In this document: positions 9,760 through 64,000 of the stretch, piece after piece
Numbering within the stretch: the stretch's first letter is position 1
Layout: each line of letters starts with the position of its first letter
Notes under the pieces: generated by a model
What the model was told of the DNA's origin: nothing
What the model saw: the letters and a program-made list of their open reading frames with translations, nothing else
Databases searched by the model: none
Assembly (NCBI GenBank): GCA_963828465.1
Contig: CAWHEU010000022.1
Span: forward strand, 224,001-288,000
DNA: 64,000 nucleotides
Reading direction: 5' to 3'
Source of the DNA: an uncultured Acidobacteriota bacterium
GTDB taxonomy: Bacteria; Actinomycetota; Acidimicrobiia; Spongiisociales; ZC4RG35
Program-made: the position numbers and the translations under genes

Positions 9760-10914
9760 TCATGGCCAGATGAGATCGACACCACCTGAATCGATCAGCC
9801 GCTGAACGTCATCGGCCAGTTGGCCGGAATGGATGAGCGTCTCCAGATGTCGTCCCGGGCACAACGTGGCGGCGTGGTCCCCATGGCCGGAGATCGTGTT
9901 CGGGGTCACGTCGTATCGCTCCGACGCCCAGGCCAGTACCGACTTCAACGACGCCAGTTGCGCCGCCGTCGGTTGCTCCACCTCGAAATTGCCCTCTACG
10001 ACGACGAGGAGGTGACCCGTCGTGTCATATGGGGTGCCCGTGTCTCCTCGAAAGGCAGGGTCACGACCTTCGTAGATTCGTCCGTCGACGCCCACGACGA
10101 TGTGATAGGCGAGATCCGGCCATCCCTGACCGTTCATGTGCCAGTCCTGCCAACCCCGTATCTGGCCCGGCCCGGTGACGCCTGCTTGGGTCCCGGCGTG
10201 ATGGATGGTCAGACGATCGATGGTGTGAGGCGTCATCTCGGCAAGACGCGGCGCTACGGCGCCCCAACCCTCACGCGAGACGACTGTCAGAGGCGGGTCG
10301 GTTCGCGGTGGCGGACGGTTGGGAGCTAGACCAAGGGCACGAGTGAGAAACGTCGCCATCTGACCCCTGGTGATCAGAGCGCTCGGGCAGAAGCGATCGT
10401 TCACAGGAGGGTTGCAACCAACGGTGATACCAGCCAGGGCAACGCGGTCGATGGCGCTTTCGAAGATGCTCCCGTCGTCATCGACGAAGTGATCGCCGCG
10501 TGAGGCGGGGAGAGCAAATGCTCGCACCATCATCGCTGCCATCTCGCCCCTGGTCATCGGCCTGTCGGGACAGAAGCGATTTTTCACTGGTGGGTTGCAT
10601 CCGACCGTGATCCCAGCCGCCGCGATGCTGTTGATGGAACGCTCGAACACATCACCCGAGTCGTCGGTGAAGAAGTCTTCTCCGCTGTCGGCTAGCTGCC
10701 GGGCGCGAGAGATGAATGCAGCCATCTGCCCTCTGGTGACCGAGGAGTCGGGGCAGAACCGGTCATTCGCAGGTGGATTGCAGCCGGTGGTGATCCCGAC
10801 GGCGGCGATGGCTTCGATGCCGCCCTCGTGAGTATCCCCGTCATCATCTGTGAAGCTCCCGCCTGGCGGAAGGACGAGGAGCATCACCGAAACAGCCATC
10901 GCAGGGAGGCGCAT
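9760..10914 (-). CDS. Secreted SLH-like repeat protein with C-terminal N-acetylmuramoyl-L-alanine amidase (PGRP/Amidase_2-like)
   Basis: Three GCNPPxxxxFCP..TRG(Q/E)MA repeats, then IHHAG, WPDLAYH and GHGDHAATLCPG with the Zn ligands present. Confidence 0.85.
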   Translation of the reverse strand: MRLPAMAVSVMLLVLPPGGSFTDDDGDTHEGGIEAIAAVGITTGCNPPANDRFCPDSSVTRGQMAAFISRARQLADSGEDFFTDDSGDVFERSINSIAAAGITVGCNPPVKNRFCPDRPMTRGEMAAMMVRAFALPASRGDHFVDDDGSIFESAIDRVALAGITVGCNPPVNDRFCPSALITRGQMATFLTRALGLAPNRPPPRTDPPLTVVSREGWGAVAPRLAEMTPHTIDRLTIHHAGTQAGVTGPGQIRGWQDWHMNGQGWPDLAYHIVVGVDGRIYEGRDPAFRGDTGTPYDTTGHLLVVVEGNFEVEQPTAAQLASLKSVLAWASERYDVTPNTISGHGDHAATLCPGRHLETLIHSGQLADDVQRLIDSGGVDLIWP

Positions 10915-10925
10915 TCCAGCGATGC

Positions 10926-12327
10926 TCAGTCCTGCTCCTCCGGCGGTTTCACCGGCGGGTCACCTGGCGGCGGGTAGGACGGAGGCGATGGCGCTGATGC
11001 CTGGCCGAGAGGTTGCATGAGATCGTCGACACGGACGAAGAAAGCGGATGCCTCGCCTCGTGTCAATCTCCGATCCGGGCAGAATGAGTCCGGCCCACAC
11101 CCCTTGGTGATCCCGGCTTCGGCGAAAGCATCGATAGCCGATTCGGCCCAGTGTCGATTGTCGTCCGAGAAGGCATCGGGAACATCACGGGAGAGCCCCA
11201 GCGCCCTGACTGTCATCGCAGCGAACTCGGCACGAGTCAGAAGCCTGTCCGGGCAGAACGCCCTTGGGGCGCAGCCCGTGACGATGCCTTCGGCAGCGAG
11301 TCGGTTGATCGCATTCTGGAACGTGCTGTTCCCATCGTCTCTGAAGAAGTCCTTCGAGGTCGCAGGAAGGCCCATCACACGATGGAAGAAGGCGGCCGCC
11401 TCACCCCTGGTGATGGTTCGGTCAGGGCAGGCCAGGCGGTACCCGCATCCGAAAAGGAGCCCTCGGGCATGCAATTCGGTGAGGGCGGGCCTGAAGAGGC
11501 TCGAGTTGTCGTCCGTGAACGGGTCCATGCAGCCGACGCGGCCATGCGTCGACACCGCCACCTGATCCACTACCAGTGAGAGGCGATTCGGGGACGGCCA
11601 GTCTCCACCGAAGTAGACGTTGTGCCACATGTGGCGGATCCTGATGTTCGCATCGCCGGGGAACCGGTATGCGATGCCCTGCTCGTTGAATCTGAGCTTC
11701 CCGTCGAGCCAGCCGTCAAAGGATCCATTGCTGAGGGATGGGGCGTTCAGCTTGACGTGCCCCTCGATGCAATGCCAACGACCCTGCTCCAGTGAAGCCC
11801 CAGGCCACCAGAGATGCTCACCGCAGTCGCCCGGCTGATTTGCGTGATAGAGGTAGGTCCCGATCGGGATCCGGCCTCCGGGCACTCCTTCGGTTCCCGG
11901 GCTGCCGAATAGTCCTCGCGCGGACCAGCCGGGCGAGCCCCCGGTTGGTGGGATGCAACCCCGTCCGGATGACGAATAGAGGCCGGCCAGCCCGGGGAGC
12001 TTGCCGACGAAGGCGGCGTTCCAACTCAACAAGCGGATGTGATACCGATACCAGGCTTCCGTCGGTGCCGGCGCGAGCCTGTCGAGCGGGCCGAGGCCGC
12101 GGAACCCTCCCTCGGGAATGACGACCTCCAGGCCATTGCCTGCGAAGCCACCGTTCGTGATGCTGGTGCGGGACAGGTCGAGGGACCGGACGTCCACCAT
12201 GCCCTCGGTCCATGTGTCATCTTCGAAGCCCGTTTTCGACAATGATCTCCCCGGCTGCCGGGAGGGGCCCACCCAGGGCCAGGGCCACAACAACGGTGAC
12301 GAGCAGAGGGCCCGCTCTTCGGCTCAT
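10926..12327 (-). CDS. Secreted polysaccharide-lyase-like (PL14-type) protein with SLH-like repeats; frameshift near 12230
   Basis: Signal peptide MSRRAGPLLVTVVVALAL from ATG 12327. Motifs GKLPGL, GWSAR, YLYH, GRWHCIE...NG...WLDG and YFGG, then three SLH-like repeats. Confidence 0.7.
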
Positions 12328-12432: not shown

Positions 12433-13716
12433 ATGCTGCGCAGGGTCCTCTCCGTCTTCCTCATGGCGCTGTTGCTCGTGCCGTTGGTCCCGGCGGGATC
12501 AGCCCTGGCCCAGGAGCAAACGACGTTCACCCCGGAGGGGGAGCTCGCCACTTACTCGACGAGTGTGGCCCGGCTCCAGGAAGCCCTAAAGGACAAGAAG
12601 TTTTACCGCGGCTCCATAGACGGTATCTACGGTGCGCAGACCCAGCAGGCGGTGATGGCCTTCCGCAAGGAGATCGGAGCGAGCCGCTCGTTCTCCTGGA
12701 GCGATTCGCACTGGGACGATCTCGAGCTCTACCAGGCCCCCTACACCAGGTTCGACGAGCCCGATCGGGTGGAGGTCAACCTGGACAAGCAGACCGCGCA
12801 CCTGTACCGCGGTGGGGCTCTGGTGGCCACGTTCCCGATCTCCTCGGGCAACGGTGAGACCTATCACGACAATGCCGGGAACCTGAAGCGGGCGGTGACC
12901 CCCACCGGCGACTTCGAGATCTACCGCCATGCCTCCGGTTGGTACGAGTCGACACTCGGTCTCGGGATGATGCTGAGCCCGTGGTTTTTCAACGGCGGCA
13001 TAGCCCTCCACGGGTCCCTCTCGGTGCCATCCGGGCCTGCATCACACGGGTGCATTCGCCTCACCACCTGGGACAGCGGTTTCCTCGACAGGTACGCATT
13101 CAGGGGGATGCCGGTCCACGTTTATTACGCCGACGATTCACCCGTCTATGGCAGCGACGGGCCTTTCGCAGACGTCCCGGCGAGCCACACCTTCGTGGCC
13201 GCTATCCAGTGGATGGTCGACACCGGCACCACCGACGGCTGCAGTCTCTATTTCTTCTGCCCCGACGCACCGGCGAGCCGCGGTCAGATCGCTGCCTTCA
13301 TGAGGCGGATATTGGGGCCGCATCTGGGGAATGGCCCGCCGGCGGAGTTCGCCGACACCGAGGGTCATCCGTTCGAGCGGGCAGTGGAATGGATGGCGGG
13401 CCTCGAGATAACCAAGGGTTGCAACCCGCCCGACAACACCTTGTTCTGCCCTGACCGGTCTGTGACTCGAGGTGAGATGGCCGCCATGTTCATGAGAGCG
13501 GGCGAGGAGTTGTTGGGGGTGAGCTCGGACAACGTGAACCTCGATCGCTTCCGCGACACCCGGGGTCACAACTTCCAGAAGGCTGCCGCCTGGATGGCGT
13601 CAGCCGGCGTCAGCCTCGGGTGCAACCCGCCGACCAATGATCAGTACTGCCCGGACACCAAGGTGACCCGAGCCCAGCTCTCCGCTTTCCTGAAGCGGAT
13701 CGTGGATCAGCTCTGA
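12433..13716 (+). CDS. L,D-transpeptidase with peptidoglycan-binding domain and SLH-like repeats
   Basis: Signal peptide, PG-binding motif IDGIYGAQTQQAV, YkuD motif ALHG...SHGCIRL and three SLH-like repeats. Confidence 0.9.
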   Translation: MLRRVLSVFLMALLLVPLVPAGSALAQEQTTFTPEGELATYSTSVARLQEALKDKKFYRGSIDGIYGAQTQQAVMAFRKEIGASRSFSWSDSHWDDLELYQAPYTRFDEPDRVEVNLDKQTAHLYRGGALVATFPISSGNGETYHDNAGNLKRAVTPTGDFEIYRHASGWYESTLGLGMMLSPWFFNGGIALHGSLSVPSGPASHGCIRLTTWDSGFLDRYAFRGMPVHVYYADDSPVYGSDGPFADVPASHTFVAAIQWMVDTGTTDGCSLYFFCPDAPASRGQIAAFMRRILGPHLGNGPPAEFADTEGHPFERAVEWMAGLEITKGCNPPDNTLFCPDRSVTRGEMAAMFMRAGEELLGVSSDNVNLDRFRDTRGHNFQKAAAWMASAGVSLGCNPPTNDQYCPDTKVTRAQLSAFLKRIVDQL

Positions 13717-14880: not shown

Positions 14881-14881
14881 C

Positions 14882-16968
14882 TCAGAGGTCGAGGGCGCGT
14901 GTCAGGAAGGCCGCCATCTGGCCGCGAGTGACAGGCTGATCGGGGCAGAACTTCGTGTTGGCCGGCGGGTTGCAACCCAAGGTGACCCCAGCGGTGGCAA
15001 GTCGGTCGATCGCCGACTCGAAAACGCTTCGGTTGTCGTCGCTGAAGTGATTGCCGCCCCCGTCGTTGGTGTATCCCAGAGCCCGCACCAGGAAGGCCGC
15101 CATCTGGCCCCGAGTGACCGGCCGATCGGGGCAGTACTTCGTGTTGGCCGGCGGGTTGCAACCCAGCGTGACTGATGCGGTTGCCAGTCGGTCGATGGCG
15201 GCTTCGAAGACATGCCCGTTGTCATCCGTGAACTGGTCGCCGCCTCCGTCGTCGGTGTATCCCAAGGCGCGGACCAGGAAGGCCGCCATCTGGCCTCTGG
15301 TCACCGCATCCTTGGGGCAGAACGCGTCATTGAACGGCGGGTTGCACCCACGGGTGATCCCCGATGCTCCCAAGCGCTCGATGGCAGCGGTGAAGACGCT
15401 GTCGTCGTCGTCGAAAAAGAGACCATTGAAGGCGAGGGGCAACGGGTCGTCACAACTCTGATCGGGGCGGGCGAACCAGCGGGTGGGAGGGGCGTCGGTC
15501 GGTGTATTGCCGACGTGGACGACCAGCGACCCACTCGCCACTGAACACCTCGATATCTGCCCGGCCGTCACCGTCGTAATCGGCGGCGCCCAGCCCGCGA
15601 ACTTCATTGGCCGGGATCTCGACGTCGAATGACTGGTCCAGGGTCAGCCCGCCGCCCTGCAGATTCAGGACGTCGATTCTCGAACCCGAACTGTCGGGGT
15701 AGAGGGCGAACAACTCCGGAGTGGTTCCTCCGTCACGGTCGCCGGCCGCGATGTGAATCGGTGTACCACCTGGCATTGTTGCGTTTCTCAAGACGGTGCT
15801 GAGCCCGGGTCCTTTGAGAACGCGGAGAGTGCCACCCGGCCCTGCTTCCCAAACGTCGGCCCTGCGGTCACCGTCGAGATCTGCTCCGGCGAGGGCGACA
15901 TGATTTGGGTCGATGCCGGTGGAGAGGTTGGAGATGTCCTCGAAGCCGGAGGACACGCGACGCGACGGATGCAGTCACCGTCGAGCCAGTGTTGAACGCC
16001 ACGAGGTCCTGTCCGCTGTCAGCGTCGAGGTCCATGAACAGGATCCGGTCCGACCCAGCTATCGAAGCGTCGGGAAGGAACCACCGGTTCACCGAGCATT
16101 CCCCAAAGAGCATGGTTCCGGAGGCCACATCGATGACCGTGCCACCAGGATGGGCCCTGACGCCGGCCACGTCCGGTGCACCCTTGCCGGTCACGTCGGC
16201 GATGGTGAGCCGATATCGGTCGGTCACGGATGTGAACTCGGTGCGGTAGGTGGCAGCCGCCGATGCGAAAGGCCGTTTCGAAGTGACCGGAGGGAGGGGG
16301 GTCAGCGGGGATTCCGGGCCGCTGCCCGGGCCCATCCACGAAAAATGCATCGGGTCTTTGCTGAAGACCCAATCACCTCCCCAGCAGAATCCAGCGTCAC
16401 GCCATACGTCGACGTACCAGCCTGGCATGTTGGTGATCAGTCTGTTGTCGTCGCGCTGCGGGTTCTGCGCCGGATTGATGTCCACGGCGAGCCCGAGGCC
16501 GTGACGCGAGATCTGAGTGCTGCCGGCGATGGTGCGAGAGGTGAATCCGGACACGCTCCTGACCGTGTACGTATTTCCTTGCGCCGCCTGGGCCGCCAGG
16601 CCAGCGCTGACCCGACGGAAGGCGGGGAGTGCGAGACGGTGGACGCTCACCACTCTTCCCCCGCTGCCGGGCACCACCCATGGCGCGAGGTTGGCTCTGA
16701 CCTGTCCAATCGTTCTCCCGAAGTACGTGCCGAAGGGGCCGAGCACCGGCTCTGCAGAAGACAATCCTCCGGACTTGGAGGAATAGGGCGTCCTGGCAAA
16801 AGGGGCACCGCAACTCGCTGCCTCCGAGAAGCTGTTCCAGCGGGTCGATGTGTCGGATGATGGCTCTCCAGGCAGAGCCGGGACCATCACCAGGCCGAGG
16901 ATGATGCTGAGGGCGGCGAGCCCCGTCCTTCGCGATGCTGCGGAGGGCACCGATTCATGATGTCGCAT
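14882..16968 (-). CDS. Secreted M15-family Zn peptidase with FG-GAP-like repeats and three SLH-like repeats; two frameshifts (~15955, ~15540)
   Basis: M15 motifs SRHGLGLAVDINP and WGGDW..DPMHF; repeats ADVTGKG, DLDADSG, ADLDGDR and ADYDGDG; C-terminal SLH-like repeats. Assembled from three overlapping ORFs. Confidence 0.75.
14900..15430 (-). repeat. Intragenic 186-bp-period tandem repeat encoding SLH-like units
   Basis: CAGGAAGGCCGCCATCTGGCC recurs at 14903, 15089 and 15275. Confidence 0.85.
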
Positions 16969-16993
16969 CTGGCGCCCTATGCGATCTGGCTGC

Positions 16994-18007
16994 TCAGTCG
17001 GATGCAGTGACCCGGGCTGTCGTCTCCTGCACGACAACGCCCGCCCATCGCCATACAGCGACCAACGTGTGGGTCCCGCCGGAGAACGTCATCGTCGACA
17101 CCCACGCCCGCTCGGCGATCGAGCCGTTGGTCCGGAGAGGGCGCGCCGACATCGACACCGGGTTCCCATCGAGGGTGAGGCGGAAACTGGTGTCGCCCGA
17201 CGTGAAGGCGGCCTCCTCCCCTGATCGATATGGGAGCACCTGAAACAGCCCTTCGTCGATGCGGTATTTGGTCCCGGCCCCGACGACGAGGCTGAGGGTG
17301 CAACGGCCACCGCCCCGGGAACAGGCCGAGCGATTCCACTCCGACAGCGGGACGACGATCCCGGGTATGGGGAGCTCGAGTGCCCGACGAACGAACCCGG
17401 CGCTCTGGGCCCTGGTCAAACGATCGTTGGGGCAATACCGATCGTTGGTCGGTGGATTGCAACCGAAGGTCCACCCCTGAGCGGCTACCCGGTTTATGGC
17501 GCCCTCGAGGACATGGCCGTCGTCGTCGACGAACCGGTCGCTGCTCGTTTCGGGCAGTTCGTAGGCGCGGGCCAGAAATGCGGCGAACTCGGCGCGTGTC
17601 AGCCCTCGGTTGGGGCAGAAGTTCGTGTTGGCCGGAGGGTTACACCCAAGCGTGATCTCCGCTTCGGCCAGGCGATTGATGGCGCCCTCGAGGGCATGCC
17701 CGTTGTCGTCGTCAAAGAAATCGTCGTCGCTCTCGGGCAGGTTCAGCGCCCTGGCGACGAAGGCAGCGGCCTGGGCCCGAGTCATGGTGTCGTCGGGGCA
17801 ATAGCGATTGTTCGTCGGGGGATTGCATCCGAAGGTGATGCCGGCATTGGCGATCGCCTCGATCCCGTTCTCCAACGGGTGCCCGTTGTCGTCGGTGAAG
17901 CGGCCACTGACGGTGAGGGCTTCGGCGCGGCCCGGGAAGAGGGTCATAACGATGGCAACCAGCGCCACCACGGTCACAGAGACGAGGACCCTTCTCCGGG
18001 CGATCAT
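16994..18007 (-). CDS. Secreted SLH-like repeat protein with C-terminal beta-rich domain of unknown function
   Basis: Signal peptide ending in AEA, three GCNPPxNxxxCP..TRA(Q/E) repeats and a C-terminal domain with a CSRGGGRC pair. Confidence 0.85.
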   Translation of the reverse strand: MIARRRVLVSVTVVALVAIVMTLFPGRAEALTVSGRFTDDNGHPLENGIEAIANAGITFGCNPPTNNRYCPDDTMTRAQAAAFVARALNLPESDDDFFDDDNGHALEGAINRLAEAEITLGCNPPANTNFCPNRGLTRAEFAAFLARAYELPETSSDRFVDDDGHVLEGAINRVAAQGWTFGCNPPTNDRYCPNDRLTRAQSAGFVRRALELPIPGIVVPLSEWNRSACSRGGGRCTLSLVVGAGTKYRIDEGLFQVLPYRSGEEAAFTSGDTSFRLTLDGNPVSMSARPLRTNGSIAERAWVSTMTFSGGTHTLVAVWRWAGVVVQETTARVTASD

Positions 18008-20482: not shown

Positions 20483-20989
20483 TCGGTCCGGGTCAAGGCC
20501 ATGGTTTGAGGTAGGCGGGATAGGAGGAGGTAGGCAAGGTAGACCCCGATGGCGACAAAGACGACATAGGCGATGAGGGTCGACATGGAGTCATCGGTCG
20601 GAATGACGGCTGTCCCGGTGATCGCAACGACACCGAGGGCGATCAGACTGACGACATTGAAGCCGAAATGGAACCAGGACGGAGGGGTGTCCTCCCGCCC
20701 GAAACAGCCGCAACTCTGGATGGGAAGGTCGGCCCGCAGGGCCAGCCACGTAAATGCGGCGAACCCCGCATAGAGCACCACGGCCGCCCGTTACCCAAGG
20801 CCCACCCAGGATCAAACCGACTACCGAAACCGCCACCTCGACAAGCCCCAAGATCCGGACGACAGATTTCGACGAGGGGAGGCGAGCAGCGCGCAAGGCG
20901 CCGACGGTTGGGACTGGATCCGCCATCTTGGCCATCCCGGCCAACCCGAGCAGGCCGAGAGCTATGGCGGCGACGGCTGCGGCGACCAC
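20479..20989 (-). CDS. MauE/DoxX family membrane protein; frameshift near 20785
   Basis: Motifs LAGMAK, LGLVEVA and the MauE hallmark SCGCFG; several TM helices. Confidence 0.85.
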
Positions 20990-21075
20990 GAGGCGAGAGT
21001 AGTGCTGATGCTCTGGATCGCCGGAATCCCCCCGAAAGTATGTCTACCCGCCTCGGGAGCTTTACCATTTCTCCG

Positions 21076-29219: not shown

Positions 29220-29241
29220 AGGCCACCTGATGCCGCCCTAC

Positions 29242-44550: not shown

Positions 44551-44551
44551 G

Positions 44552-45742: not shown

Positions 45743-45762
45743 GCGTTGGGGCCTGCCAACCG

Positions 45763-47404: not shown

Positions 47405-47529
47405 TCCAGCATCTCAACTATGTGGTGCCACAAGTGCCCATTCTTGATGACAGTCGTGCGCCCCGGCCCGACAAGCAGCTCGGCGCTCCGTACTTGCGGG
47501 ACGCAGAAGTCTTCGCATAGGTTGAACCG

Positions 47530-50201: not shown

Positions 50202-51045
50202 GCCAGGACCTGGTCGAGGCGCTCTCGACCTCCTTCATCAGGGTCGCCGCCTCGTCGCGGGCCGCCACCATCCTCCGAATCCAAGCCACCGCTGTTCTGG
50301 CTCGCGCCAGGTTGCGGAGATAGTCCTCGCGGCCGACCGTGTCCAGCATCGGCCCGTCGGGCCCGGCGTCCCAGCGGTCGAGAAATCGTTCGAGATTCTT
50401 CCGGTACAGCGCCGTCAGACCGGGCACCTCCTTCATGCTGGCCTGGGAGGCATGCTCCACGAGGACTCTGCTGTCGACAACCACGTCGAGGCCATGGGCC
50501 CAGACGGTGAAGGCCAGGTCGAGATCCTCCCCGCTGGCTCGCTCATATGCCTCGTTCCAGCCGCCCAACGCCGTCCATCTGGGATCTCCTCAACACCACC
50601 ACGACGCCACTGGGGAACTCGCCAAAGGGAAGCAAGGTCTCGACGGTTTCGCCGGGCTCGTTCCTGACCGTCACCGGGTTGCCTGCCGCGGTTACCGCCG
50701 GCAGCACCATCCCGGTCTGCAGCTGCGTGTCGAGTATTTCGGTGAGCGAGACATCCCATCCCGCGGGCAGAACCGTGTCGTTGTTGACGAAGGCCACATA
50801 GGTACCGGTGGCTACGGCCAGCCCTGAGTTGTTCCCGGCGGCAAACCCGAGATTGTCCGAGTTGATCACAGCCTTGTCGGCCGCCGCAGCGGCATATTCG
50901 GCGCCGCCGTCGGTCGAGCCGTTGTCAACGATGATCAACTCGTAGTCGACGAGGTGTTCCCGAACGGATCGAGTCGCACACAGCGGCTGGTCAGCTCCAG
51001 CTGATTCCAGGCGAAGACGACAACGGAGAGATTGGGAGTCTTCAC
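50185..51045 (-). CDS. GT2 glycosyltransferase, with at least two frameshifts
   Basis: SVVVFAWN from GTG 51045, then IVDNGSTDG, NLGFAAGNN, FVNND and GEDLDL in successive frames. Confidence 0.78.
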
Positions 51046-52739: not shown

Positions 52740-52807
52740 TGCCTCCGAATGTAACGACGCGCTTCCGCGGTTGTGTCCAACGAGCGCAGTTCTCTTACAG
52801 TCTCTCT

Positions 52808-53542
52808 GTGCCGGCCCCCCATACGACAATCGCGATGCTTCACGTCGGTCGTTGTGGCAGCACGGTCGTGGCAGAGATGCTTGGCCGGCACCCGGCAATC
52901 TCGTGGGATGGTGAGGTGTTCGAGGACAAGGTCCGATCAAAGATCGGGTTCGAGGACGTTCCACCCCGAGAGTTCCTCCTGAACCGGATCGCTGACACTC
53001 CTGAGATGTATGGGTTCGAGATCAAATACCTCCCTTCGCACCACCCGCGCATCCTGGGTCTCGCCTTGGGGGGTCTTCTCGATCTCACCGACTCGGTCGG
53101 CGTCAACCATTACGTGACACTGCACCGGCACAACTACCTGCGTCGCGTCGTGTCGGGGGTGATCGGTCGCGAGAGGCGACGTTGGCACCGGACCTCGGAC
53201 GAGACCATGCCGGACACAAGGGTCCGCGTCGATCTGAATGCAGTGCCGTTTGGCCCTCGCCAGCCGCTGCTCGCGGTGTTCGAGGAAATGAGGCAGGGGG
53301 AGGCGGATCTGAAGTCGGCCCTCTCAGACCGGGAAGCCCTACATCTCACCTATGAGGACGACGTGGCGGTCGATCCAGTCAAGGCGTACGCGTCCGTGTG
53401 TCACTTCATCGGCGTTGCCCCAGAGGAGGTGCGGCCCGGCCTCGACCGCACCGGGACCGACCGACTCGAATCAATGGTGTCGAACTACGACGAAATCGTC
53501 GGCTTGTTGTCTGGCACCGAATATGCGTGGATGCTGGACTAG
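52808..53542 (+). CDS. Sulfotransferase (Stf0-like)
   Basis: Motifs HVGRCGST, LHRHNYLRRVVS, LTYED and VSNYDEI. Confidence 0.78.
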   Translation: MPAPHTTIAMLHVGRCGSTVVAEMLGRHPAISWDGEVFEDKVRSKIGFEDVPPREFLLNRIADTPEMYGFEIKYLPSHHPRILGLALGGLLDLTDSVGVNHYVTLHRHNYLRRVVSGVIGRERRRWHRTSDETMPDTRVRVDLNAVPFGPRQPLLAVFEEMRQGEADLKSALSDREALHLTYEDDVAVDPVKAYASVCHFIGVAPEEVRPGLDRTGTDRLESMVSNYDEIVGLLSGTEYAWMLD

Positions 53543-53553
53543 AGCTCGCCGAC

Positions 53554-54372
53554 ATGTTGCGCCGACGTCCGAAGGAAGAACGAGCATTGGCTGAGGCGCC
53601 AATGGCCCCACCGTTCTGGGTCATCGGCGCCCCTCGGTCGGGAACGACCTTCTTGGCGCGGGTCCTCGACCATCACCCCGACATCTTTCTGACCAATGAG
53701 ACCCGCCTCATGCTCCTGTTCAGCCGGATGCTCAATCGTTGGGTTGGGGCGCGTCGTCTCCTCGCCACTTCGCGTGACGAGGTCATCGAGAGCCTGTGGC
53801 ATCAGGTTCCAGGCATGGTCGAGCAGATATACCGCGATCTTGGGGCTCGACCGGGTCAGCGATGGGGAGACAAGTATCCCCAGTACGCCGACGGCGACCA
53901 GGACTCCGAGGCTCTGGCGACGATCGACCGACTCTTTCCAGAGGGCCAATATGTCCACATCATTCGTGATCCCCGGGCGGTCGTTGCGTCCATCCTGTCG
54001 AAGGGGTGGCTCGGCTTCGATGAGGCGATCGAAGCATGGCGTGTCTTCGTGACACACGCTCACAGCTTCGGAATGACCGTCGGAAAGGATCGTTATCACG
54101 AGATCCACTTCGAGAGCCTGGTCGAGGATGGACACTCGACCATGGAGGGAATCTTCACCTTTCTCGGCTTGGTGAATCATTCAGACGTCGATGCGTTCCT
54201 GAGGGCGGAAGCCGACATTCGGACTCCGGTGAGTGCTCCGATGGGAAGACCGGGAAGCGTCGGTCGTGAGGCGTGGGAGGGTCGACTCGACGACTCACAG
54301 GTCTCGAAAATCGAGGTCGAACTGTCGGGTCTGATGAGCGAGTTCGGCTACGTGGCCCAGTCCAGCATCTAG
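53554..54372 (+). CDS. Sulfotransferase
   Basis: Motifs IGAPRSGTT, WGDKYP, IRDPRAVVAS and FESLV. Confidence 0.9.
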   Translation: MLRRRPKEERALAEAPMAPPFWVIGAPRSGTTFLARVLDHHPDIFLTNETRLMLLFSRMLNRWVGARRLLATSRDEVIESLWHQVPGMVEQIYRDLGARPGQRWGDKYPQYADGDQDSEALATIDRLFPEGQYVHIIRDPRAVVASILSKGWLGFDEAIEAWRVFVTHAHSFGMTVGKDRYHEIHFESLVEDGHSTMEGIFTFLGLVNHSDVDAFLRAEADIRTPVSAPMGRPGSVGREAWEGRLDDSQVSKIEVELSGLMSEFGYVAQSSI

Positions 54373-54950
54373 GACGATCCCGGCAGGGCGATGAAGAACG
54401 TTCGATCCGGCAGATACCAGGGCTCGACGGCGAGGACCAGGTCGTAACCCGCCTTGTCCAGCATTTTGTGAAACGACTCTGGTGTCGGCCAGAAGGATCG
54501 TGGGTTTTGCCAGGACGACAGGAGACCAGTTCCTTCGTGATACCAACGTCCGTTGAATCCGAGCTCCTCCACCTCCTCGCTCAACGGGTGCGTCGAGAGC
54601 CCATTGGCAAGGTGGGTGTCGATGATCAATGGTGCTCCCTTGCACCTGGCCAGGAGATCGATCTGGTCCGGCACGGTCAGGTGGTAGAAGAGACCGAGAC
54701 AGGCCACCATATCGAACCCTGTCACGTCGAACTCCCGAACATCTGACTCGACCCAGGTAACGCCCGCAGCGGGCACATTGCGCTCGGTGCGTGCGTCCAC
54801 GGCGGTGACCTCCCAGCCTGCATCGGCGGCCACCATCGAGAACTTGCCATGACCGGCTCCCAGATCGACAAGACGTCCGGGAGGGAAGAGCTTGAGCAAT
54901 CGGCCGAAGATCTCGACACGGCGACGTCCATCATCTGCCAAGCCGTGCAC
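54369..54950 (-). CDS. Class I SAM-dependent methyltransferase
   Basis: Motifs VDLGAGHG and CLGLFYHL. Confidence 0.85.
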   Translation of the reverse strand: MHGLADDGRRRVEIFGRLLKLFPPGRLVDLGAGHGKFSMVAADAGWEVTAVDARTERNVPAAGVTWVESDVREFDVTGFDMVACLGLFYHLTVPDQIDLLARCKGAPLIIDTHLANGLSTHPLSEEVEELGFNGRWYHEGTGLLSSWQNPRSFWPTPESFHKMLDKAGYDLVLAVEPWYLPDRTFFIALPGSS

Positions 54951-55319: not shown

Positions 55320-55733
55320 TCAGTGAAATTTGCCCATCTGGAGGCTCCCTTGAAAGAACGAGGCGCCGCTCTTGGGGATCTGGAGGTTCATCGCGAGACG
55401 CTCGACGACCCCGCTGCCTCCGTCAGGGGCGTGTCCGGCGTCGCGAAAGCCGAACCCCAATCCGATACCCCCACCAGCGATGAAGGTGTCATGGAACCGC
55501 TTCAGGAAACCGGCCATCTGACCACGAGTGACTGGATCGTCGGGGCAGTAGTTGGTGTTGGCCGGCGGGTTGCACCCCTGGGTGATCCCGTTGGCGGCCA
55601 TGAAGTCGATCGCCGCGTGGAACGTGTGCGAGTTCGGCACGTCCTGAAACTGGTGTGACGCATAGAGCGTGAGTGGCACAGCCATCAGGACGGCGACGAC
55701 CACCGCGAGAATGGTGGACTTTTTCAAGACCAT
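55320..55733 (-). pseudogene. Secreted protein with a single SLH-like repeat, probably truncated
   Basis: Signal peptide, then FQDVP..H.F..AI..GITQGCNPPANTNYCPDDPVTRGQMAGFL. The ORF ends abruptly in atypical sequence. Confidence 0.55.
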
Positions 55734-56351: not shown

Positions 56352-57447
56352 GTGAAGTTTTCGACGCGATTGTTAGCGGGGTTCGTGTTGGCCCTCGGGT
56401 CTCTGTTCCTCGCGAGCGCGCCGGCGTTCGCCGCACCTTTCGATCCAAGCGGTATGGCCTTTCCGCTGGACGGGGAATCATCGGCTGACCGACAGCTTCG
56501 GTGACTGCCGGGGATCCGGATGCTCCAGGGCGCACGAGGGCGTGGACATCATGACGGCGAAGGGTGTTCCCGTCCTGGCCGCCGGTGCCGGCGTGGTCAG
56601 CTGGATCAGCTCCGGTCCCAGTGACTGCTGCTACGTGGGCATCGACCATGGTGGGGGATGGGAGACGAGGTACATCCATCTCAACGACGACATTCAGGAC
56701 GCCTCCGGAGCTTACGTCCCCAACACCGACGGCCAGGGATGGGGGATCGCCGAGGGCCTAGCCGAGGGGATTGCTGTCACCCGAGGTCAGGTCATCGGTT
56801 GGGCCGGTGATTCAGGCAACGCGGCGGAGACCGTCTCACACCTGCATTTCGAGCTCCGCAAGAACGGGACACCTATCGACGCGTATCCCTACCTGGTCAA
56901 CGCCCTGGGCGGGTGGGACGGACGCTTCCAAGACGATGACGGCAACGTCCACGAGAAGAACATCGAGATAATCGCCCAACGTGGCATCACGCTCGGGTGC
57001 AACCCGCCGCTCAACAACAGGTTCTGCCCCGAGGATCAAATCACTCGCGGGCAGATGGCAGCGTTCATCGCCCGCGCTCTCGATCTGCCCGAGGGCGGGG
57101 AGATCCCGTACACCGACGTAGTCGGGAACAAGTTCGAGCCGGCGATCCGTGCCATCGAGGCGGCCGGCATCGGGTTTGGTTGTACCAAGACCGAGTTCTG
57201 CCCCGGTGTCCCGCTCCTTCGCCACGAGATGGCGGAGTTATTGGTCCGGGCCTTCAGTTACGACAACCCGACGGGCACCAATTACTTCGTCGACGACGAG
57301 GGCAACCAGTTCGAGGACTCGATCAACGCCCTCGCCGCCCACGGCGTCACCATGGGGTGTAACCCGCCGGCCAACACCAAGTTCTGCCCGGACATGCCGC
57401 TGAAACGCTCGCAGATGGCCACGTTCTTCGTCCGGGCCATGCCCTAG
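56352..57447 (+). CDS. Secreted M23 peptidase with three SLH-like repeats; frameshift in the G-run near 56473
   Basis: Signal peptide from GTG 56352 (VKFSTRLLAGFVLAL...AFA); Zn motifs HEGVDI, YIHL and HLHFE; SLH-like repeats. Confidence 0.85.
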
Positions 57448-57451: not shown

Positions 57452-58876
57452 CTACTCGACCACCTCGTAGTACTTGTCGACGATCTCCAGCCGCCGTTGC
57501 TGGTAGCCCGAAGAGGACCCGGCCAGCACATGCTCGATTGGGTAGGAGGCGCGGGGGTCGATTCGGGCGCGATCCGATGCGATCACGAGGGTGAGCACGT
57601 CGCCCTCCGGTCCGGTCGGCGGGTCACCGAGGCGGACCTTGCGCCTCTCCGTGGTGTAGTCGGGGACCGTGCGGCCGAGAAGCTTCTTGACCCTGGCCTT
57701 GCCCCTCTCGCCGAGAATGGCGCCGGCGAGACGGCTGGACAGAGGTGCATCCCAATGGGTCTGTGCCCGCTCCCGTCCGGAGGGCTGCGGCGGCTTCAGT
57801 AGCTCGGCGGCAACTGCAGTGGCGCCGCCGACCCGCGTCGCCACCCCGCTCGACTGGTGGCTGGCCACCAAATCGGCGCGTACGGCTGGGTCGAGGAGGC
57901 GTCGGTCTCCCGCGCCACCGCCGCCAGGTCGTCGTCACGCGCCGAGAGGGCGACGCCGAGGTCGGCCAGATACTGCGCGCGTCCCTCTTGGTTGTCGGTC
58001 TTGCTCGAGGTGTTGGGGATCAGCAACGTCGGTACCCCGGCGGGGATCAGTTCATGAACCGAGTTGTACCCGGCGGCACTCACCGTGGCGTCGAACGCGT
58101 TGAAGTAGCGAAGCAACGGGTAGATGCCTTTGATCTCGATCACCCGTGAGTCATCGACCAGTGGGACCAGGTTGACCGCAACAGGGGAGTTGGTCACGGC
58201 CACCTGCCAGTCCGGGTGGGCCAGGACCACGTCGAGAGCCGTCGAGCCGGGGCCGGCCACATCACCGAGCCGGCCCGAGCCCAGTGTCAGAAGGAGCGTC
58301 GGGCGATCCGGGTCGAGGCCGAGATCACGCGCCGCCGTCTCCCGATCGAGTTGGCTCATGACCTCGAGCAGGCTGATCGGAGGAACCCGGAGTGACTCGG
58401 TGCCGGTGGTGGCGCCGCTGTCGATCTCCGATGCGAGATCGGTGGGCTCTATCACGAAGTCGAAGCCGCCTGTCTTCCGAAGCTGATGAACATTCGTGCC
58501 CTCGCGCCACATGCCACGACGCAGCCAGCCCACCACGCAATCGAGTTGAGCGATGGCCCGCATGAATCCGGAGTAGGGCGCCACGCCATCGAAAAGCAGG
58601 ACATCGGGCCGAACCTCATCGGCGAATGCGGTCAGCCGGTCCTGGAGATAGTTGTCCCACTCCTTTCGAACGATGAACTGCGTGGTGAAGCTGGGGCAGT
58701 ACTCGCCTCTGATCCCGAACTCCATGGCAAGGGGAAAGCCGGGGGAGAGGGAGAACATGGTGGTCTCGGCCCGGTCGCCAATGGCCAGGGCGATTGCCAA
58801 GCTGACGGGTCAGATGGCCCAGCCCCCAGCCGTTGCTGGTGACGAGGAGGATCCTGAGCGGAGCCGGCCCGGTCAG
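57452..58876 (-). CDS. GT-B glycosyltransferase, paralogue of 43015..44550; frameshifts near 58801 and 57890
   Basis: Motifs ILLVTSNGWGLGHLTRQ, WLRRGMW, AAGYNSVHE and DNQ..RA. Confidence 0.78.
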
Positions 58877-61370
58877 CTCAGTGCTTTCTGCAAGGAAGCG
58901 GAGGCCTGGCGCAGTCGATCCCGGTATTCGGCGACCCGGGCATCGGCGGCTTCCGTGCCGAGGCTGATGGCCTCTGCCGCGAGGTCGACGATCGAGTCCC
59001 CGGACAGGGTGTCGGTCCGGGCAACGAGATCTCCGCGATCCACGGATTCGGCGAAATCCCTCAGCTTGGGGCGGTACTCGATCCCGATGAACGGAGTCGA
59101 GACCGCTGCAGCCAGGATGCAGGCGTGGAGCCGCTCTCCGACCACCACTTCGGCCGAGGCGATGAGGTCGATGGCTGCCTGATTCTCCACATAACCCGCC
59201 AGATAGGGAAGGACCTCACCCCCGGTCGCCTTGCTCAGCTGAAGGATTTGGCCGTCGTCCTCGGGGCTGGAGGCGAGGCAGACCACCTCTCGACCGTCGC
59301 CGTGCCACTGCGTCACTGCATCAGCGAGAGCAGCCACCACATCCCGGTCGGAGCCACCCCACAGCTCGCCCTTGGTCCAGACCGGGGCGATGACGATCCT
59401 TCCGGCCTGTCGCTTCACCCCTTCGCTCGCCGTGGAGAGCAGCGCCGAGTCCCCACAGATCTCGAGCTCGCCCTTGTAGCCCCAGGACCTCAGGGTCTCT
59501 GCTGATTGCGGCCCTCGCACTCCGACATAGACACAACTGGTAAGCCACCGCACCCAGCGATCCGGATCCTCCGTCAAACCCCAGAACTCGGGGCTGGCCA
59601 CACCGGTGCCCAGGGTTGCCCTCTCGATCCGGGGTGAGTCTCGTTCAGACACCCAGCGGAGATACGTGCGCATGTTGATCAGCGTTCCGCCGCCGAGGAC
59701 GATCAGGTCTTGGGGATCACCCGACTCGGCGATGTCTGCCCAGTCGAGCAGCTCTCGGATCCGATCCACCATCACGTCGTCGCCGAGGTTGAACCGACCC
59801 GTCCATCCGACATAGCGGGCCTGGGGGCGATCAGATGGTGAGCGGGCCGGCTCGGCTGTCTTGGACACCGGTGTGTAGGTGGTCCCGCTTCGTCGGGCTG
59901 TCATGAAACGAGCCATTGTTGACACGCTGCCACGAGGATTCTTGACGATGTCCTTCGCCAGTCGAAGGGGATCGGGTGGGACATTGGTGAAGTCGACCGG
60001 CCGCTCCGCCCTTTCGAGGCCGGGTAGGCGAACCGCTGCCGAGGGCCAATGCCGATTCAAGTTCCACTCCCGGGTGGTTCGCCACACCTCGGCGACTTTG
60101 CTCCCTCGCGCATCAGTTTGGTGGCCTCGCGTTTACGTATGAACCAGCAAAGCGGCATGTCCGATTGCCAGCCCGAGTCGACGGCCGCGGCTCCGTTCTG
60201 GGTCCTCGCCGCCCCTCCCTGATCGGTCGGCAAGGCGTAGCCGGTCGTCGCCGTCACGTACTCCGGTCGCTGATCGAGCCGCTTGATCATCTCCGAGAAC
60301 AGCACATCGGATGGCGCCCCATGGCCGTTCAGGTAGCAGACGTATTCGCTGGTGGCCGAGGAGGTGGCGTCTTCGAGCGAAGGGCTGAACCGGATGCGCC
60401 GGTCGCCGATGGTGGCCCCGGCGAAGGGGTCGTGATCATCCGGATTCGCGACCACGACCAACTCGAAATCAGTCCGGGGCTGGGCGAGCAGCAGCTCCCA
60501 GGTGGCCTCCAATGCGCCGACCGGGACGTCGTAGAGGACGATCGACAGCTTCGGGTTCTCCGGGATCGTGGCCGGGGGCCGCTTCCGATAGAACTGGTGG
60601 GGCACCAGGCTCGCCATCAAGCCGGAATTGAGTCGCCGTGCCTCCTTCCTGCCCTCGACACCGCCGGCGGAGTCGAGGTCCAGTTGGTGGTCGATCTCGA
60701 GCGTCGGGTCGAACACGAAGGTGGCGCCGGCCTGCCAGGCCCGCCATCCCAACTCGCTGTCCTCGCTTCCCCACCAGCGGAATCGCTCGTCGAATCCGCC
60801 CAACTCACGGAAGAAGGCGAGAGGGAGCGATATGTTCGAAGAGACGAACGCACGAAACGCCTCCCCCCCGTGCTGCAGGCCGGCGGACCGGCGCAGCAAT
60901 TGGCTTCGATAGTGCTCGGCCTCCCCGGGTGTCTCGTCCGGAGGATTGGAACGACTGCCGATGACCACCGATGTCGCCGACGAACCATGCCAGGCGCGAT
61001 GGCGCTCGACGAAGTCCGGCGGAACCGTGCAGTCCGAGTCGAGCAAGAGGAGGATGTCGGCGTTGGCGTGAGCTGCGCCCAGATTCCGGGCCCGGCCGGC
61101 GCCGAATCCGTCGTGAGGTTGAAAGTGGTAGCTGATATCGAGGCCATCGACCGACTCGACCACACCGCGAATGTCCTCATCGGACCCGTCATCACATACG
61201 TGGACCTCGAAGGTCGACGTGTCCGATTGTTGCGCCAGTGATGCCAGCGTCCGGGCGAGGAGCGCCGACCGGTTGTAGGCGGGGATGACGACCGCCACCC
61301 GAAGCCCGGACGCCCCGACCGGATCAGGGGCAACCTGGTTCACGTTGTGTGGTTGGACTCCCTCGTTCAC
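58873..61370 (-). CDS. GT2 glycosyltransferase, probably fused to a C-terminal polysaccharide pyruvyltransferase; frameshift near 60095
   Basis: GT2 motifs VIPAYN, CDDGS, LDSD and WGSED; pyruvyltransferase motifs FNLGDD, LGGGT, VGVRG..S, GDSAL, RLHA and YRPK. The two ORFs overlap and the second has no good start. Confidence 0.72.
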
Positions 61371-63122
61371 TCGGCGACGACCTCGTGGGGCATGATTCGA
61401 TACGCCTCCGCCATCAGGTCGTATCGCCGTGCAGTCCCCAGCTGGGACACGACGGCGCTCGGGTGATGGTCGTCGACGAATTCGTCCAGCCCTTCGAAGG
61501 GCCCGTCGACGTAGATGTACCGCCTCGCGCTGGCCAGCACTTTCTCCATGAGCACCGGGTCTCCACCCTGGCGTACCGCCGCTGCTTCGAGGTTGCGGGG
61601 GCGGAGACGGTGCTGACTGATCTCGGCGGCTCCCCATATCTCACGATCGGGGAGCGCCACGGCGAGCTCCGGCGCTCCGAGCTCCACCACCTTCTGCACC
61701 TCGGCGTCGCGCCGGATCAGCTCGGCCATGGCGTCCAGCTCGGGCATCGCGGGAATATCCCGCTTCTCGATCTCTGCCAGCGATCTGGAACAGCTCATCT
61801 ACCCGATGGTCGTACGTGTTGATGCCCAGCGATCGATTCAAGGCCCGATCAGCGATCTCCTGCATCGCGTCCAGGTCGGAGAGGAGCTCTCTCACGTCGG
61901 CCACGACATCGGGGCCGAGCATGGCGTACTCCACTCCTGGCTCCAGGAGCATCTCCATGCCGGGGAGATGATCAGAGAGAAGGACCGCCCCGCTTCCCAC
62001 CGCTTCGAGGACTCGCATGGTGATCGGGAAATGCCTGGTGCCACCTTCGTTGACGACGATCCGTGCCTTGGAGTACATGTCGGCCATGACATCGGCGGTG
62101 ACCTTCTCCCCGAAGGCAAGACGATGTCCGGGAAATGACGCTTCGAGCTCACGGACGATCTGCTGCCGCCTGCCGTACGGGCCCCCCTCCCAGAGCTTGG
62201 CGCCGACCAGAGCGACATCGAACGGTCGATCCTTCAGGGGGAGGCTGGGATCGAGGACCTCGGTGGCAACGCCAAACGGGAAGCGATAGACCGGGGTCGG
62301 GAACCACGGAGCCAGATGCCAGGAATGGGCGAGGAGAACGGCGTCGGCGCGGTATCGGTTGGCGAGCCGGAGATTGGTATGGAGGTGGTGCTCCCCGTGG
62401 TGCGCCCAGAACAGAGTGGGCACGCCGGTGGTCCCGATCACTTCGAGTGCCGGATATGGGCCCTCGACGAAGACGATCAGGTCGGTGTCTCCATCGACCT
62501 GATCGAGGTCGATGCCCTCGGTCTCCAGCCGAACGTGTGCCCCACTCCTTCGAAGAGCCGACTCGAGGTATTTCCCGGGATTCGAGTCGGTCTTGCGGTA
62601 GCAGATGATGACATTCCGATCATGGTGACGGTCGGGGGCCGGGGTGTACGGCGTTCGATGGTCGTCCGGTGTCTGGAAGAGGCCGATACCAGGTATCGGC
62701 GTGGCGAGATCGGGACGGTGCGGGGCGAGGGAGATGAGATCGACTTCGGGCGGGCAATCCATGTGAGGGGACCGGAACACCGTGCCACCTGTGGCTCGCG
62801 CTGCCGCTACCGCGGCTCCGATCCCATTGGGATGAGTCGGAAGGAAACATTCGGCGCCGGTGGCGACTGCAGCATCGGCCAGCCTTCGCATGATCCCCGA
62901 CTCTCGCCAGGACCTGGGCTGCGCCCTCCGGATCACGGAGCCGACGGGACCGAGCCCCATCGGTGAGTTGTTGGGAACCGTCGAGGCGACGGGGCCGGCA
63001 GGGGGCGCATTGTCGACTGCCACCACCGAGACCTCGTGACCGGCAGCGACCAACGCCCTATAGGTGGAGAGGGCGTTTCGGTCGTTGTGGAACCGGTTGC
63101 GTGCGACCAGGCAGAAATGCAT
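61367..63122 (-). CDS. CgeB-like GT-B glycosyltransferase; frameshift near 61775
   Basis: Motifs FPFG, YSKARIVVN, TMRVLEAVGSG and NTYDHR. The C-terminus is in ORF 61367..61798. Confidence 0.78.
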
Positions 63123-63146
63123 CGGTTGGAAGATCGTATCGACTCG

Positions 63147-64000
63147 TTATGAGTTGATCAGGTCCATGGATCGCCGGATGAACCCTGCCATCTGACCCCG
63201 GGTGACCGAATCGACGGGGCAGAACCGGTTGTTGTTCGGCGGATTGCAGCCGAAGGTGATGCCGGCTGCGGCCACACGGTTGATTGCTCCTTCGAATGCG
63301 GAAGCTTCGTCGTCGACGAAGGAATCCGTGCCGGTCGCCGGTAGGTCGAGGCCCCGAGACAGCATGGCGGCCATCTGCCCTCTCGGAATCTCCTGTTCAC
63401 CGCAGTACCGGTTGGGGGCACATCCGGTGGTGATGCCGGCTGCCGCCATCCGATTGGCAGCGTCTTCATAGAAGGCTCCCTCGTCGTCGACGAAGAAGTC
63501 GGTCGAGGTCTGGGGTGGGTCGAGTGCCCGGGTCAGGAACACCGCCATCTGACCCCGGGTCACGAGGTTCTCCGGGCAGTAGCGGATGTTCACGGGCGGA
63601 TCGCATCCCTGGGTGATACCGATCGCCGCCAGTTGGTCGATGGCGGCGAGGAACACCGAGTCGGAGGTATCGATGAACCTGCGCGTCAATGTACGCCCCG
63701 CGTTGACCCGTCCCGTCTCGACCCGGGACCCCACGATGCCTGGCCGGTCGACGAACGCCTTGATCCTGGCCACCAGCTCCTGATGCGCGATTCCCGGGTC
63801 GGCTTCCAGGAGAAGGGCCGCCACTCCCGCCACCACCGGGGAGGCGAAGGACGTTCCATCTGCGAACACATGCCCGCCCCCGGTGTCGGTAGTGAGAATC
63901 TCCACACCGGGAGCTGCCACATCGATCGTGGTGCGCCCGTAGTTGCTGAATCCGGCCAGCCGATCGAATCGGTCGGTGGCGGCCACACCTATGACGTTGG
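63147..64000 (-). CDS. S8 subtilisin-like serine protease with three SLH-like repeats; 5' end outside the window
   Basis: Motifs FSNYG, DVAAPG and GTSFASP; C-terminal SLH-like repeats. Confidence 0.9.
   Translation of the reverse strand, partial: NVIGVAATDRFDRLAGFSNYGRTTIDVAAPGVEILTTDTGGGHVFADGTSFASPVVAGVAALLLEADPGIAHQELVARIKAFVDRPGIVGSRVETGRVNAGRTLTRRFIDTSDSVFLAAIDQLAAIGITQGCDPPVNIRYCPENLVTRGQMAVFLTRALDPPQTSTDFFVDDEGAFYEDAANRMAAAGITTGCAPNRYCGEQEIPRGQMAAMLSRGLDLPATGTDSFVDDEASAFEGAINRVAAAGITFGCNPPNNNRFCPVDSVTRGQMAGFIRRSMDLINS

Follow-up and report, generated by a model that had tools for sequence, protein, structure and literature searches.

What holds the secreted wall enzymes of an uncultured actinobacterium to its cell wall? 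The question is raised by a 64,000-nucleotide stretch of DNA (the window) from contig CAWHEU010000022.1 of assembly GCA_963828465.1, in which nine genes for proteins with surface layer homology (SLH) repeats are interleaved with a glycan locus that encodes a polysaccharide pyruvyltransferase. SLH domains together with the pyruvyltransferase CsaB form the best-understood system of non-covalent protein anchoring on the bacterial wall, and we know of no structural or biochemical work on this pair that comes from outside the Bacillota. The host here belongs to the Acidimicrobiia, a class of actinobacteria; the window (58 to 65% GC) is part of contig 22 in an assembly of 3.07 Mb and 29 contigs that is 92% complete. 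We propose that SLH trimers in this organism non-covalently anchor secreted wall-remodelling enzymes to a pyruvylated secondary wall glycan, a reading to which we give a probability of roughly 0.65.

The initial annotation of the window had described a repeat with a cysteine pair, occurring mostly as three copies, in nine genes, and this description held in every search. Pfam bit scores, motif scans (regular expression G[IV]T.GC(NPP.N..)[FY]CP...[VI]TR[GA][QE]), the translations of the window and a profile built from the repeats agree on all nine genes. The profile located 25 repeats, three in each of eight genes and one in the gene at 55320, and the per-repeat E-values in these nine frames (1e-14 to 1e-29) exclude chance occurrence. 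Both cysteines are present in 25 of the 25 repeats. In 18 of them the cysteine spacing is 8 residues (GC-[ND]PPx[NK]xx-[FY]-CP), and in the other seven it is 5 residues, with the motif ending in CP in five and in CG in two; six cysteines are invariant in an alignment of the eight window trimers (alignment A1). Searched across the genome, the same profile gave 68 repeat matches in 33 stop-to-stop frames, and two further SLH genes lie just beyond the window end. All full-length repeats across the genome carry at least the two loop cysteines.

These repeats had been labeled "SLH-like," which proved to be wrong: all nine proteins score above the Pfam SLH (PF00395) cut-off of 20.8 bits (23.7 to 58.7 bits) and belong to the true SLH family. 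A trimer profile made from alignment A1 matched the SLH region of Bacillus anthracis Sap (3pyw and 6bt4) with an E-value of about 1e-17 over positions 5 to 177, and it also matched SbsB and SpaA. We modeled the trimer encoded at 14885-15430 with AlphaFold2, using a 36-row alignment, and obtained a mean pLDDT (predicted local distance difference test) of 95.7 and a pTM (predicted template modeling score) of 0.90. In a Foldseek comparison with the PDB, this model fell on 3PYW with template modeling (TM) scores of 0.81/0.83 and a root mean square deviation of 2.4 Å, and all 15 matches at E<=0.001 were SLH trimers of Sap or SpaA. A look-up in the ESM Atlas returned generic SLH clusters only. The model bears out the three-prong fold assumed in the initial annotation, and we conclude that the repeats are genuine SLH domains with a predicted SLH three-prong fold.

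The window trimers share much with those of Sap (B. anthracis) and SpaA (Paenibacillus alvei; structures 3PYW, 6BT4 and 6CWC). Both groups are built of three tandem repeats, each about 60 residues long, with profile homology that extends along the entire trimer and, for the window as modeled, the three-prong fold; in both, the trimer is joined to wall enzymes at either protein end, and every window repeat keeps a GxxxG motif, which contains Gly29, and a TR[AG][EQ] motif, which contains Arg43. The accessible text of Blackler 2018 (PMC6081394) describes a working SLH site in which the Gly29 backbone flips on binding, Trp13 stacks on the sugar and Arg43 forms a salt bridge with pyruvate. Gly29 and Arg43 are each found in 25 of the 25 window repeats and are invariant in alignment A1 and in a second alignment, A2. 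The cysteines, by contrast, distinguish the window repeats from Sap, which has Asn and Glu in their places, in keeping with the earlier statement that classical SLH repeats lack the pair. Aligned to the Sap profile, the first cysteine occupies SLH position 30, directly after the second glycine of GxxxG, and the second occupies position 36, with the conserved aromatic residue before it and the proline after it; Cys30 and Cys36 bracket the groove loop adjoining the ligand-binding Gly29. In the 18 repeats of the longer type, the loop between the cysteines is also 3 residues longer than in Sap and SpaA and has an NPPxN-type core.

Judged from predicted domains, what these trimers carry is largely a set of wall-remodelling enzymes and not S-layer proteins. 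The cargo that would be anchored comprises an amidase, an L,D-transpeptidase, M15 and M23 peptidases, an S8 protease and enzymes resembling polysaccharide lyase family 14 (PL14) and glycoside hydrolase family 26 (GH26), and at least five of the nine SLH proteins have a signal peptide, as judged by eye. We set aside a role in an S-layer or as an outer-membrane tether; Pfam searches of the nine proteins revealed neither a porin domain nor a large region for self-assembly.

The second half of the proposed system is the pyruvyltransferase, which does lie, as had been claimed, in a glycan locus interleaved with the SLH genes. The PS_pyruv_trans domain (PF04230) at 58873-60087 scores 74.8 bits, compared with a cut-off of 25.3, and is the single match in the 3.07-Mb genome. 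Its resemblance to CsaB includes the PS_pyruv_trans domain itself, a single copy placed among SLH genes, co-occurrence with SLH across genomes, and the fact that CsaB is its best-scoring NCBIfam model. It differs from CsaB in its architecture, because homologues in the same order form the C-terminal half of fusion proteins with a glycosyltransferase family 2 (GT2) domain (847, 972 and 860 amino acids in genomes G023, G028 and G098, respectively). In these relatives it is part of a conserved gene run of Glyco_trans_1_2, GT2-pyruvyltransferase, GT1 and M23-SLH genes, and the window keeps this order. In G098, rmlABCD genes adjoin the run; the neighbors in both the window and G098 are rhamnose genes and not, as for CsaB, an N-acetylmannosamine (ManNAc) epimerase. 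In two members of distant families (G302 and G377), a stand-alone pyruvyltransferase lies beside a UDP-N-acetylglucosamine (UDP-GlcNAc) 2-epimerase.

We surveyed the joint occurrence of the two features in samples of 49 genomes from the window's own order, 201 from its class and 401 from its phylum. Within the order, a pyruvyltransferase was found in 16 of the 19 genomes with at least eight SLH-trimer matches, in 2 of the 6 with one to three matches, and in 3 of the 24 with no SLH match. At the level of the phylum, it was found in 38 of 44 SLH-positive genomes versus 80 of 357 SLH-negative genomes (37/43 versus 78/355 when the unpublished genomes G449, G422 and G283 are left out). Genomes rich in the repeat thus commonly have the enzyme, as the co-occurrence expected in the initial annotation would have it. 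The two features are also jointly present or jointly missing among members of the same genus: in genus g1, G050 and G178 carry the two and G166 carries neither; in g3, G033 carries the two, and neither is found in G007 or G046; in g9, G102 carries the two and G190 neither. Furthermore, the pyruvyltransferase gene lies about 10 kb or less from SLH genes in at least 14 genomes (G000, G023, G033, G050, G074, G094, G098, G102, G178, G302, G341, G377, G516 and G563). Pyruvyltransferase and SLH are coupled in genome presence and in gene order across the Actinomycetota.

In the mechanism that we propose, synthesis of the ligand would fall to the GT2-fused pyruvyltransferase and to the products of the neighboring glycosyltransferase and rhamnose genes, and the ligand would leave the cell through an ATP-binding cassette (ABC) transporter of the Wzm/Wzt type. 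The window encodes a candidate pair, for which the best NCBIfam models are galactan Wzm (52.2 bits, cut-off 380) and Wzt (189.6 bits, cut-off 400), and the permease or a full Wzm/Wzt pair lies near the pyruvyltransferase in G023 and G516; the route through this pair is one that we infer, and its cargo is not tied to the SLH ligand. After export of the proteins, a Cys30-Cys36 disulfide would form and act as a staple on the loop that lines the groove and begins immediately after Gly29.

Several observations weigh against this reading. Of the 25 window repeats, only 1 has Trp at position 13 and 2 have Phe there; the next position, 14, is occupied by Phe, Tyr or His in 21 of the 25, a further difference from Sap and SpaA. 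Since Gly29 and Arg43 are kept while Trp13 is lost, the clamp for the anionic group is intact and the sugar-stacking wall may differ, and the sugar pocket may accordingly be unlike that of Bacillota SLH domains. The pyruvyltransferase scores 81.9 bits against the CsaB (TIGR03609) equivalog cut-off of 213.1, with a match that covers positions 124 to 290 of the 301 in the model, the C-terminal 60% only; by these scores it is not a CsaB equivalog. In addition, its GT2 and pyruvyltransferase parts stand in different frames, as do the parts of other split genes in the window, and the gene is possibly broken here, unless the splits are indel errors. UDP-GlcNAc 2-epimerase, which supplies ManNAc in the classical SLH/CsaB system, was not found (PF02350) in the window's 92%-complete genome, which makes the classical pyruvyl-ManNAc epitope uncertain here; a WecG/TagA-family transferase (PF03808) is encoded on another contig with an E-value of 5.8e-53. 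As for the genome survey, no pyruvyltransferase was found in the SLH-rich genomes G070, G114 and G154, each of which consists of 190 to 240 contigs. One weak SLH-like trimer occurs in 41 of 47 members of family f12 (genomes of about 1 Mb in the same class), and a pyruvyltransferase occurs in none of the 47. Finally, related genomes are not independent, and the counts overstate the statistical support. In the f12 examples L018 (G089) and L019 (G005), the SLH-like region is a divergent one with a cysteine pair, and it belongs to a single large protein, in frames 852 and 856 amino acids long.

Some of these observations would suit an alternative in which the SLH ligand is another anionic wall component, for example a sulfated glycan, or peptidoglycan, and the invariant Arg reads a sulfate or acidic group. 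Poor conservation of Trp13, the failure to find the ManNAc-forming epimerase in the genome, the distance of the pyruvyltransferase from CsaB equivalogs and the f12 genomes with a trimer and no pyruvyltransferase all agree with such a ligand, and the window encodes synthesis of 3'-phosphoadenosine-5'-phosphosulfate (PAPS) along with at least two clear sulfotransferases. We nevertheless consider it improbable. Sulfotransferases had been named as possible companions of the repeat, and they do not track it: Sulfotransfer_3 is found in 11 of the 19 SLH-rich genomes of the order and in 13 of the 24 SLH-free ones, sulfotransferases are present in 104 of the 201 class genomes, and the same-genus genome G050 is SLH-rich with no Sulfotransfer_3 match. 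The pyruvyltransferase, with its ratio of 16/19 to 3/24, does track SLH and lies beside SLH genes in many lineages. On the same counts we rejected sulfotransferases as markers of the SLH ligand.

The cysteine pair was followed through 178 unique near-full-length repeats drawn from loci L001-L038 and from the window's own genome. Exactly two cysteines occur in 160 of these repeats, none in 11, one in 3 and three in 4, and a lone loop cysteine is kept in only one repeat of the 178. A DNA pattern for the long loop was matched in 22 of the 201 sampled class genomes, with up to 104 copies per genome; all 22 belong to the window's own order, and the 152 class genomes outside that order gave no match. 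The reversed control pattern matched nowhere. In other families of the order (G182 and G066) the pair occurs with a short loop, GC-x4-[FY]-CP, and some of their trimers mix such repeats with classical G[FY]xDGT[FY]RP repeats. Three further actinobacterial families (G207, G302 and G377) have the same short-loop pair, again mixed with classical repeats, and G291 and G516 have classical repeats only. To judge from these alignments and patterns, several actinobacterial families have the cysteine pair as a lineage trait, and among the sampled genomes the eight-residue "NPPxN" loop appears only in this order of Acidimicrobiia. Fourteen relative trimer loci in public genomes carry the labels Acidimicrobiia (10), Actinomycetota (1), "uncultured Acidobacteriota" (2) and "bacterium" (1). 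The trimers of the two loci labeled "uncultured Acidobacteriota" (L006 and L007) are 65 to 78% identical to those of the window, and their flanks resemble it in having a second SLH trimer and, in L006, a YkuD-type trimer as well; these labels may be wrong, or the contigs may be mis-binned.

Cys30 and Cys36 probably form an intradomain disulfide. The main argument is that the two cysteines occur together or not at all, in proteins that are exported by a bacterium with genes for DsbB, for a member of the DSBA family and for MauE; as a point on the other side, the support for the bond itself is conservation alone. VKOR and Thioredoxin_4 were not found in the genome. We had also entertained the idea that the genome is devoid of canonical oxidative-folding genes, which the presence of DsbB and the DSBA-family protein contradicts. 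Daniels and colleagues are said to have described, in 2010, the use of disulfides in exported proteins of Actinobacteria, and the window's proteins would be similar in having paired cysteines in exported proteins and in the DsbB, DSBA-family and MauE genes that accompany them. In the accessible part of the Gonzalez et al. 2026 preprint, MauE is presented as a generalist replacement for DsbB; the MauE fragment at 20479-20781 (32.9 bits, PF07291 cut-off 27) shares the motif described there, a CXC followed by FG. We found no cysteine pair described in the SLH literature, and nothing on SLH in Acidimicrobiia, in a search that covered sources other than subscription-only papers and bioRxiv supplements. 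The words "cysteine" and "disulfide" have no occurrence in the accessible text of the SpaA paper, Blackler 2018 (PMC6081394).

The cysteines could instead be something other than a structural disulfide: a reduced pair, a metal ligand, a redox switch or a site of thiol exchange. This possibility gains some appeal from the conserved neighbors of the SLH genes at 18464-20989, namely MauE and two further proteins, one with a CxxC motif and one rich in Cys, and from the presence of MauE near SLH genes in G023, G033, G050, G094, G098, G102 and G178. We regard it as decidedly improbable. There are two cysteines per repeat, placed on three separate lobes of the modeled trimer, where no multi-ligand metal site is apparent. 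The pair behaves as a unit, it is kept at both loop lengths (CX5C and CX8C), and the proteins are exported by an organism with the oxidizing enzymes named above. MauE itself hardly follows the repeat, contrary to the co-occurrence that the initial annotation implied: it is present in 17 of the 19 SLH-rich and 14 of the 24 SLH-free genomes of the order and in 154 of the 201 genomes of the class, with or without SLH. We therefore see it as general machinery, in line with the generalist role given to it in the 2026 preprint, although it is often near SLH genes, and reject it as a dedicated partner of Cys-paired SLH domains; nothing in these data links MauE specifically to SLH. With sulfotransferases and MauE both failing to track SLH, the description of the locus as a "self-contained" system that includes those parts does not hold. 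The CxxC and Cys-rich proteins are the members of the 18464-20989 cluster that accompany MauE; the Cys-rich protein (411 amino acids) has a very Cys-rich N-terminal half followed by repeats that resemble FG-GAP by eye, and the cluster may form a module for oxidative folding that has a Cys-rich client of its own.

That the co-occurrence reflects shared ancestry only, with the enzyme modifying an unrelated exopolysaccharide, is highly unlikely: PS_pyruv_trans is indeed common without SLH in the phylum (80/357) and related genomes are not independent samples, but the two features are present or absent jointly within three genera, their tight linkage recurs among different neighbors in distant families (G302, G341, G377, G516 and G563), and the accessible text of PMC6801904 and PMC6081394 supplies an experimental precedent in Bacillota.

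SLH anchoring had been presented at first as outside the textbook picture of Actinomycetota, which was an overstatement. In its accessible text, a bioRxiv survey (10.1101/2021.05.31.446380) already noted that SLH and CsaB occur together across Terrabacteria, with "a few examples within Actinobacteria" among the cases, and Actinobacteria are listed among the SLH-bearing phyla in the accessible parts of PMC6801904 and PMC6081394. Three features are new here: the conservation of a Cys30/Cys36 pair, a long loop specific to the order, and a transferase that is fused to GT2 and falls outside the CsaB equivalogs. We speculate that the Cys-paired SLH domains of Actinomycetota could even be a functionally distinct class of anchor, in which the disulfide locks the groove loop that in Bacillota domains has to flip at Gly29 and makes anchoring redox dependent, and in which, within this order, the NPPxN loop and loss of Trp13 retune the pocket to a ManNAc-free, maybe rhamnose-containing pyruvylated glycan built by the GT2-pyruvyltransferase fusion; in this full form the idea is rather unlikely.

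The features of the window are collected in Table 1. All gene boundaries in it are provisional, because at least five genes are spread over two or three frames that, by comparison with relatives or Pfam profiles, should be one gene each: the M15-SLH gene (14882-17037), MauE (20479-20989), the DegT aminotransferase (41632-42775), the M23-SLH gene (56377-57447) and the GT2-pyruvyltransferase gene (58873-61637). One case is the M15/FG-GAP/SLH protein, which in G023 is one gene of 684 amino acids and in tblastn matches window positions 16932-16000, 15953-15552 and 15538-14891 in three frames; the M15-SLH gene is thus split here by two frame changes. Accordingly, we rejected the frame at 14882 as a free-standing "SLH-only" gene, since it is the C-terminal third of the frame-split M15 peptidase gene. 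The M23-SLH frame is short by about 40 to 50 N-terminal residues relative to the M23 proteins of relatives. Several SLH genes on other contigs appear to be frame-split likewise. The splits suggest assembly indel errors, with real decay into pseudogenes as the alternative.

Table 1. Features of the window; positions are counted from its first letter.
Feature	Coordinates	Strand	Basis
N-terminal SLH trimer (three CX8C) + Amidase_2 (N-acetylmuramoyl-L-alanine amidase)	9760..10914	-	Pfam SLH 32.2 bits, Amidase_2 E 4.7e-13, repeats E ~1e-27
PL14-like domain + C-terminal SLH trimer (three CX5C)	10926..12293	-	Pfam SLH E 5.7e-16, PL14 E 7.4e-9
Signal peptide, PG_binding_1, YkuD L,D-transpeptidase, C-terminal SLH trimer	12433..13716	+	Pfam, repeat profile; signal peptide by eye
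M15_4 peptidase, FG-GAP-like region, C-terminal SLH trimer; three frames	14882..17037	-	tblastn; Pfam M15_4 E 2.3e-14, SLH
Frame with SLH trimer named in the initial annotation; last third of the M15-SLH gene	14882-15607	-	Motif scan
Signal peptide, N-terminal SLH trimer, C-terminal region without family match	16994..18007	-	Pfam SLH 36.5 bits, three repeats
Membrane-anchored CxxC protein, MauD-like by motif only	18464-19387	-	Sequence; no Pfam or NCBIfam match
Cys-rich secreted protein, FG-GAP-like repeats by eye	19165-20400	-	Sequence; no Pfam or NCBIfam match
MauE with CGCFG motif, two frames	20479-20781 + 20591-20989	-	Pfam PF07291, 32.9 and 19.7 bits
PAPS synthesis: PAPS_reduct, GTP_EFTU, APS_kinase	20668..23833	+	Pfam E 8.5e-45, 2.4e-44, 2.1e-68
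ABC-2 permease (Wzm-like) + ABC ATPase (Wzt-like) with C-terminal Glyco_trans_1_2	23650..26837	+	Pfam
Signal peptide, GH26-like domain, C-terminal SLH trimer	26861..28468	-	Pfam, repeat profile
Glycan-synthesis block: methyltransferases, GT2 and GT-D glycosyltransferases, PMT-family transferases	28512..54950		Pfam
Weaker sulfotransferases	31401-32963, 52622-53542		Pfam
Clear sulfotransferases	39210-39953, 53398-54372		Pfam
dTDP-rhamnose genes	41049-41603, 47669-50201		Pfam
DegT aminotransferase, split over two frames	41632-42775		Pfam
Small secreted protein, single SLH repeat, "F.DVP..H" subtype	55320..55733	-	Pfam SLH 23.7 bits; repeat E 1.8e-27
M23 peptidase + C-terminal SLH trimer; N-terminus outside frame	56377..57447	+	Pfam; relatives align from residue 39 or 49
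Glycosyltransferase, weak Glyco_tran_28_C; place of relatives' GT1/GT4 gene	57796..58800	-	Pfam E 8.6e-7; synteny in L064, L072
GT2 domain (60057-61637) then PS_pyruv_trans (58873-60087), two frames	58873..61637	-	Pfam; tblastn across frames
Glyco_trans_1_2 protein, conserved upstream neighbor of GT2-pyruvyltransferase	61641..63122	-	Pfam; same gene order in L064, L072
S8 subtilase + C-terminal SLH trimer; runs past window end (frame 63147-63998 in window, 369-amino-acid frame in genome)	63147..64000	-	Pfam

The glycan locus is present as it had been described. We read its three PAPS synthesis genes as putative CysD, CysN and CysC; together with as many as four genes resembling sulfotransferases and with numerous methyltransferases in the one locus, they point to a sulfated, methylated and possibly rhamnose-containing polymer. 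An SLH trimer on an export protein was seen in G516, from another actinobacterial family, where a Wzt-type ABC ATPase (L069:10862-12217, plus strand; open frame of 451 amino acids) has three classical C-terminal SLH repeats and adjoins a Wzm permease and the pyruvyltransferase. Carbohydrate-binding modules of Wzt proteins read O-antigen terminators, and by analogy the SLH trimer on the cytoplasmic G516 ATPase could recognize the pyruvylated end of a chain as its signal for export.

Single-repeat proteins of the class represented at 55320 ("F.DVP..H.F..AI.WM") were also found at C20:142304-143323, C22:145143-146006, C22:488081-488893 and C24:63754-65085. A lone repeat cannot by itself form the three-prong fold, and these proteins may assemble as homotrimers. 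At lower coordinates than the SLH genes, directly after genes for the E2 and E3 components of a 2-oxoacid dehydrogenase, a 545-amino-acid frame on the plus strand (8108-9745) combines LplA-B_cat, the catalytic domain of lipoyl/octanoyl transferases, with a lipoyl synthase radical-SAM (S-adenosylmethionine) domain. This frame is a LipB-LipA fusion, or else open reading frame calling has joined two genes.

Anchoring by SLH trimers to a pyruvylated glycan would place the same logic that operates in Bacillota in uncultured Acidimicrobiia, where wall hydrolases and transpeptidases would be served as an entire set. If the cysteine pair is a disulfide, it would amount to a natural experiment on the groove-loop mobility needed for ligand binding, and it would introduce possible redox control on wall anchoring. 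The combination of SLH and pyruvyltransferase may also be a practical pair of markers with which to predict pyruvylated wall polymers in actinobacterial metagenome-assembled genomes.

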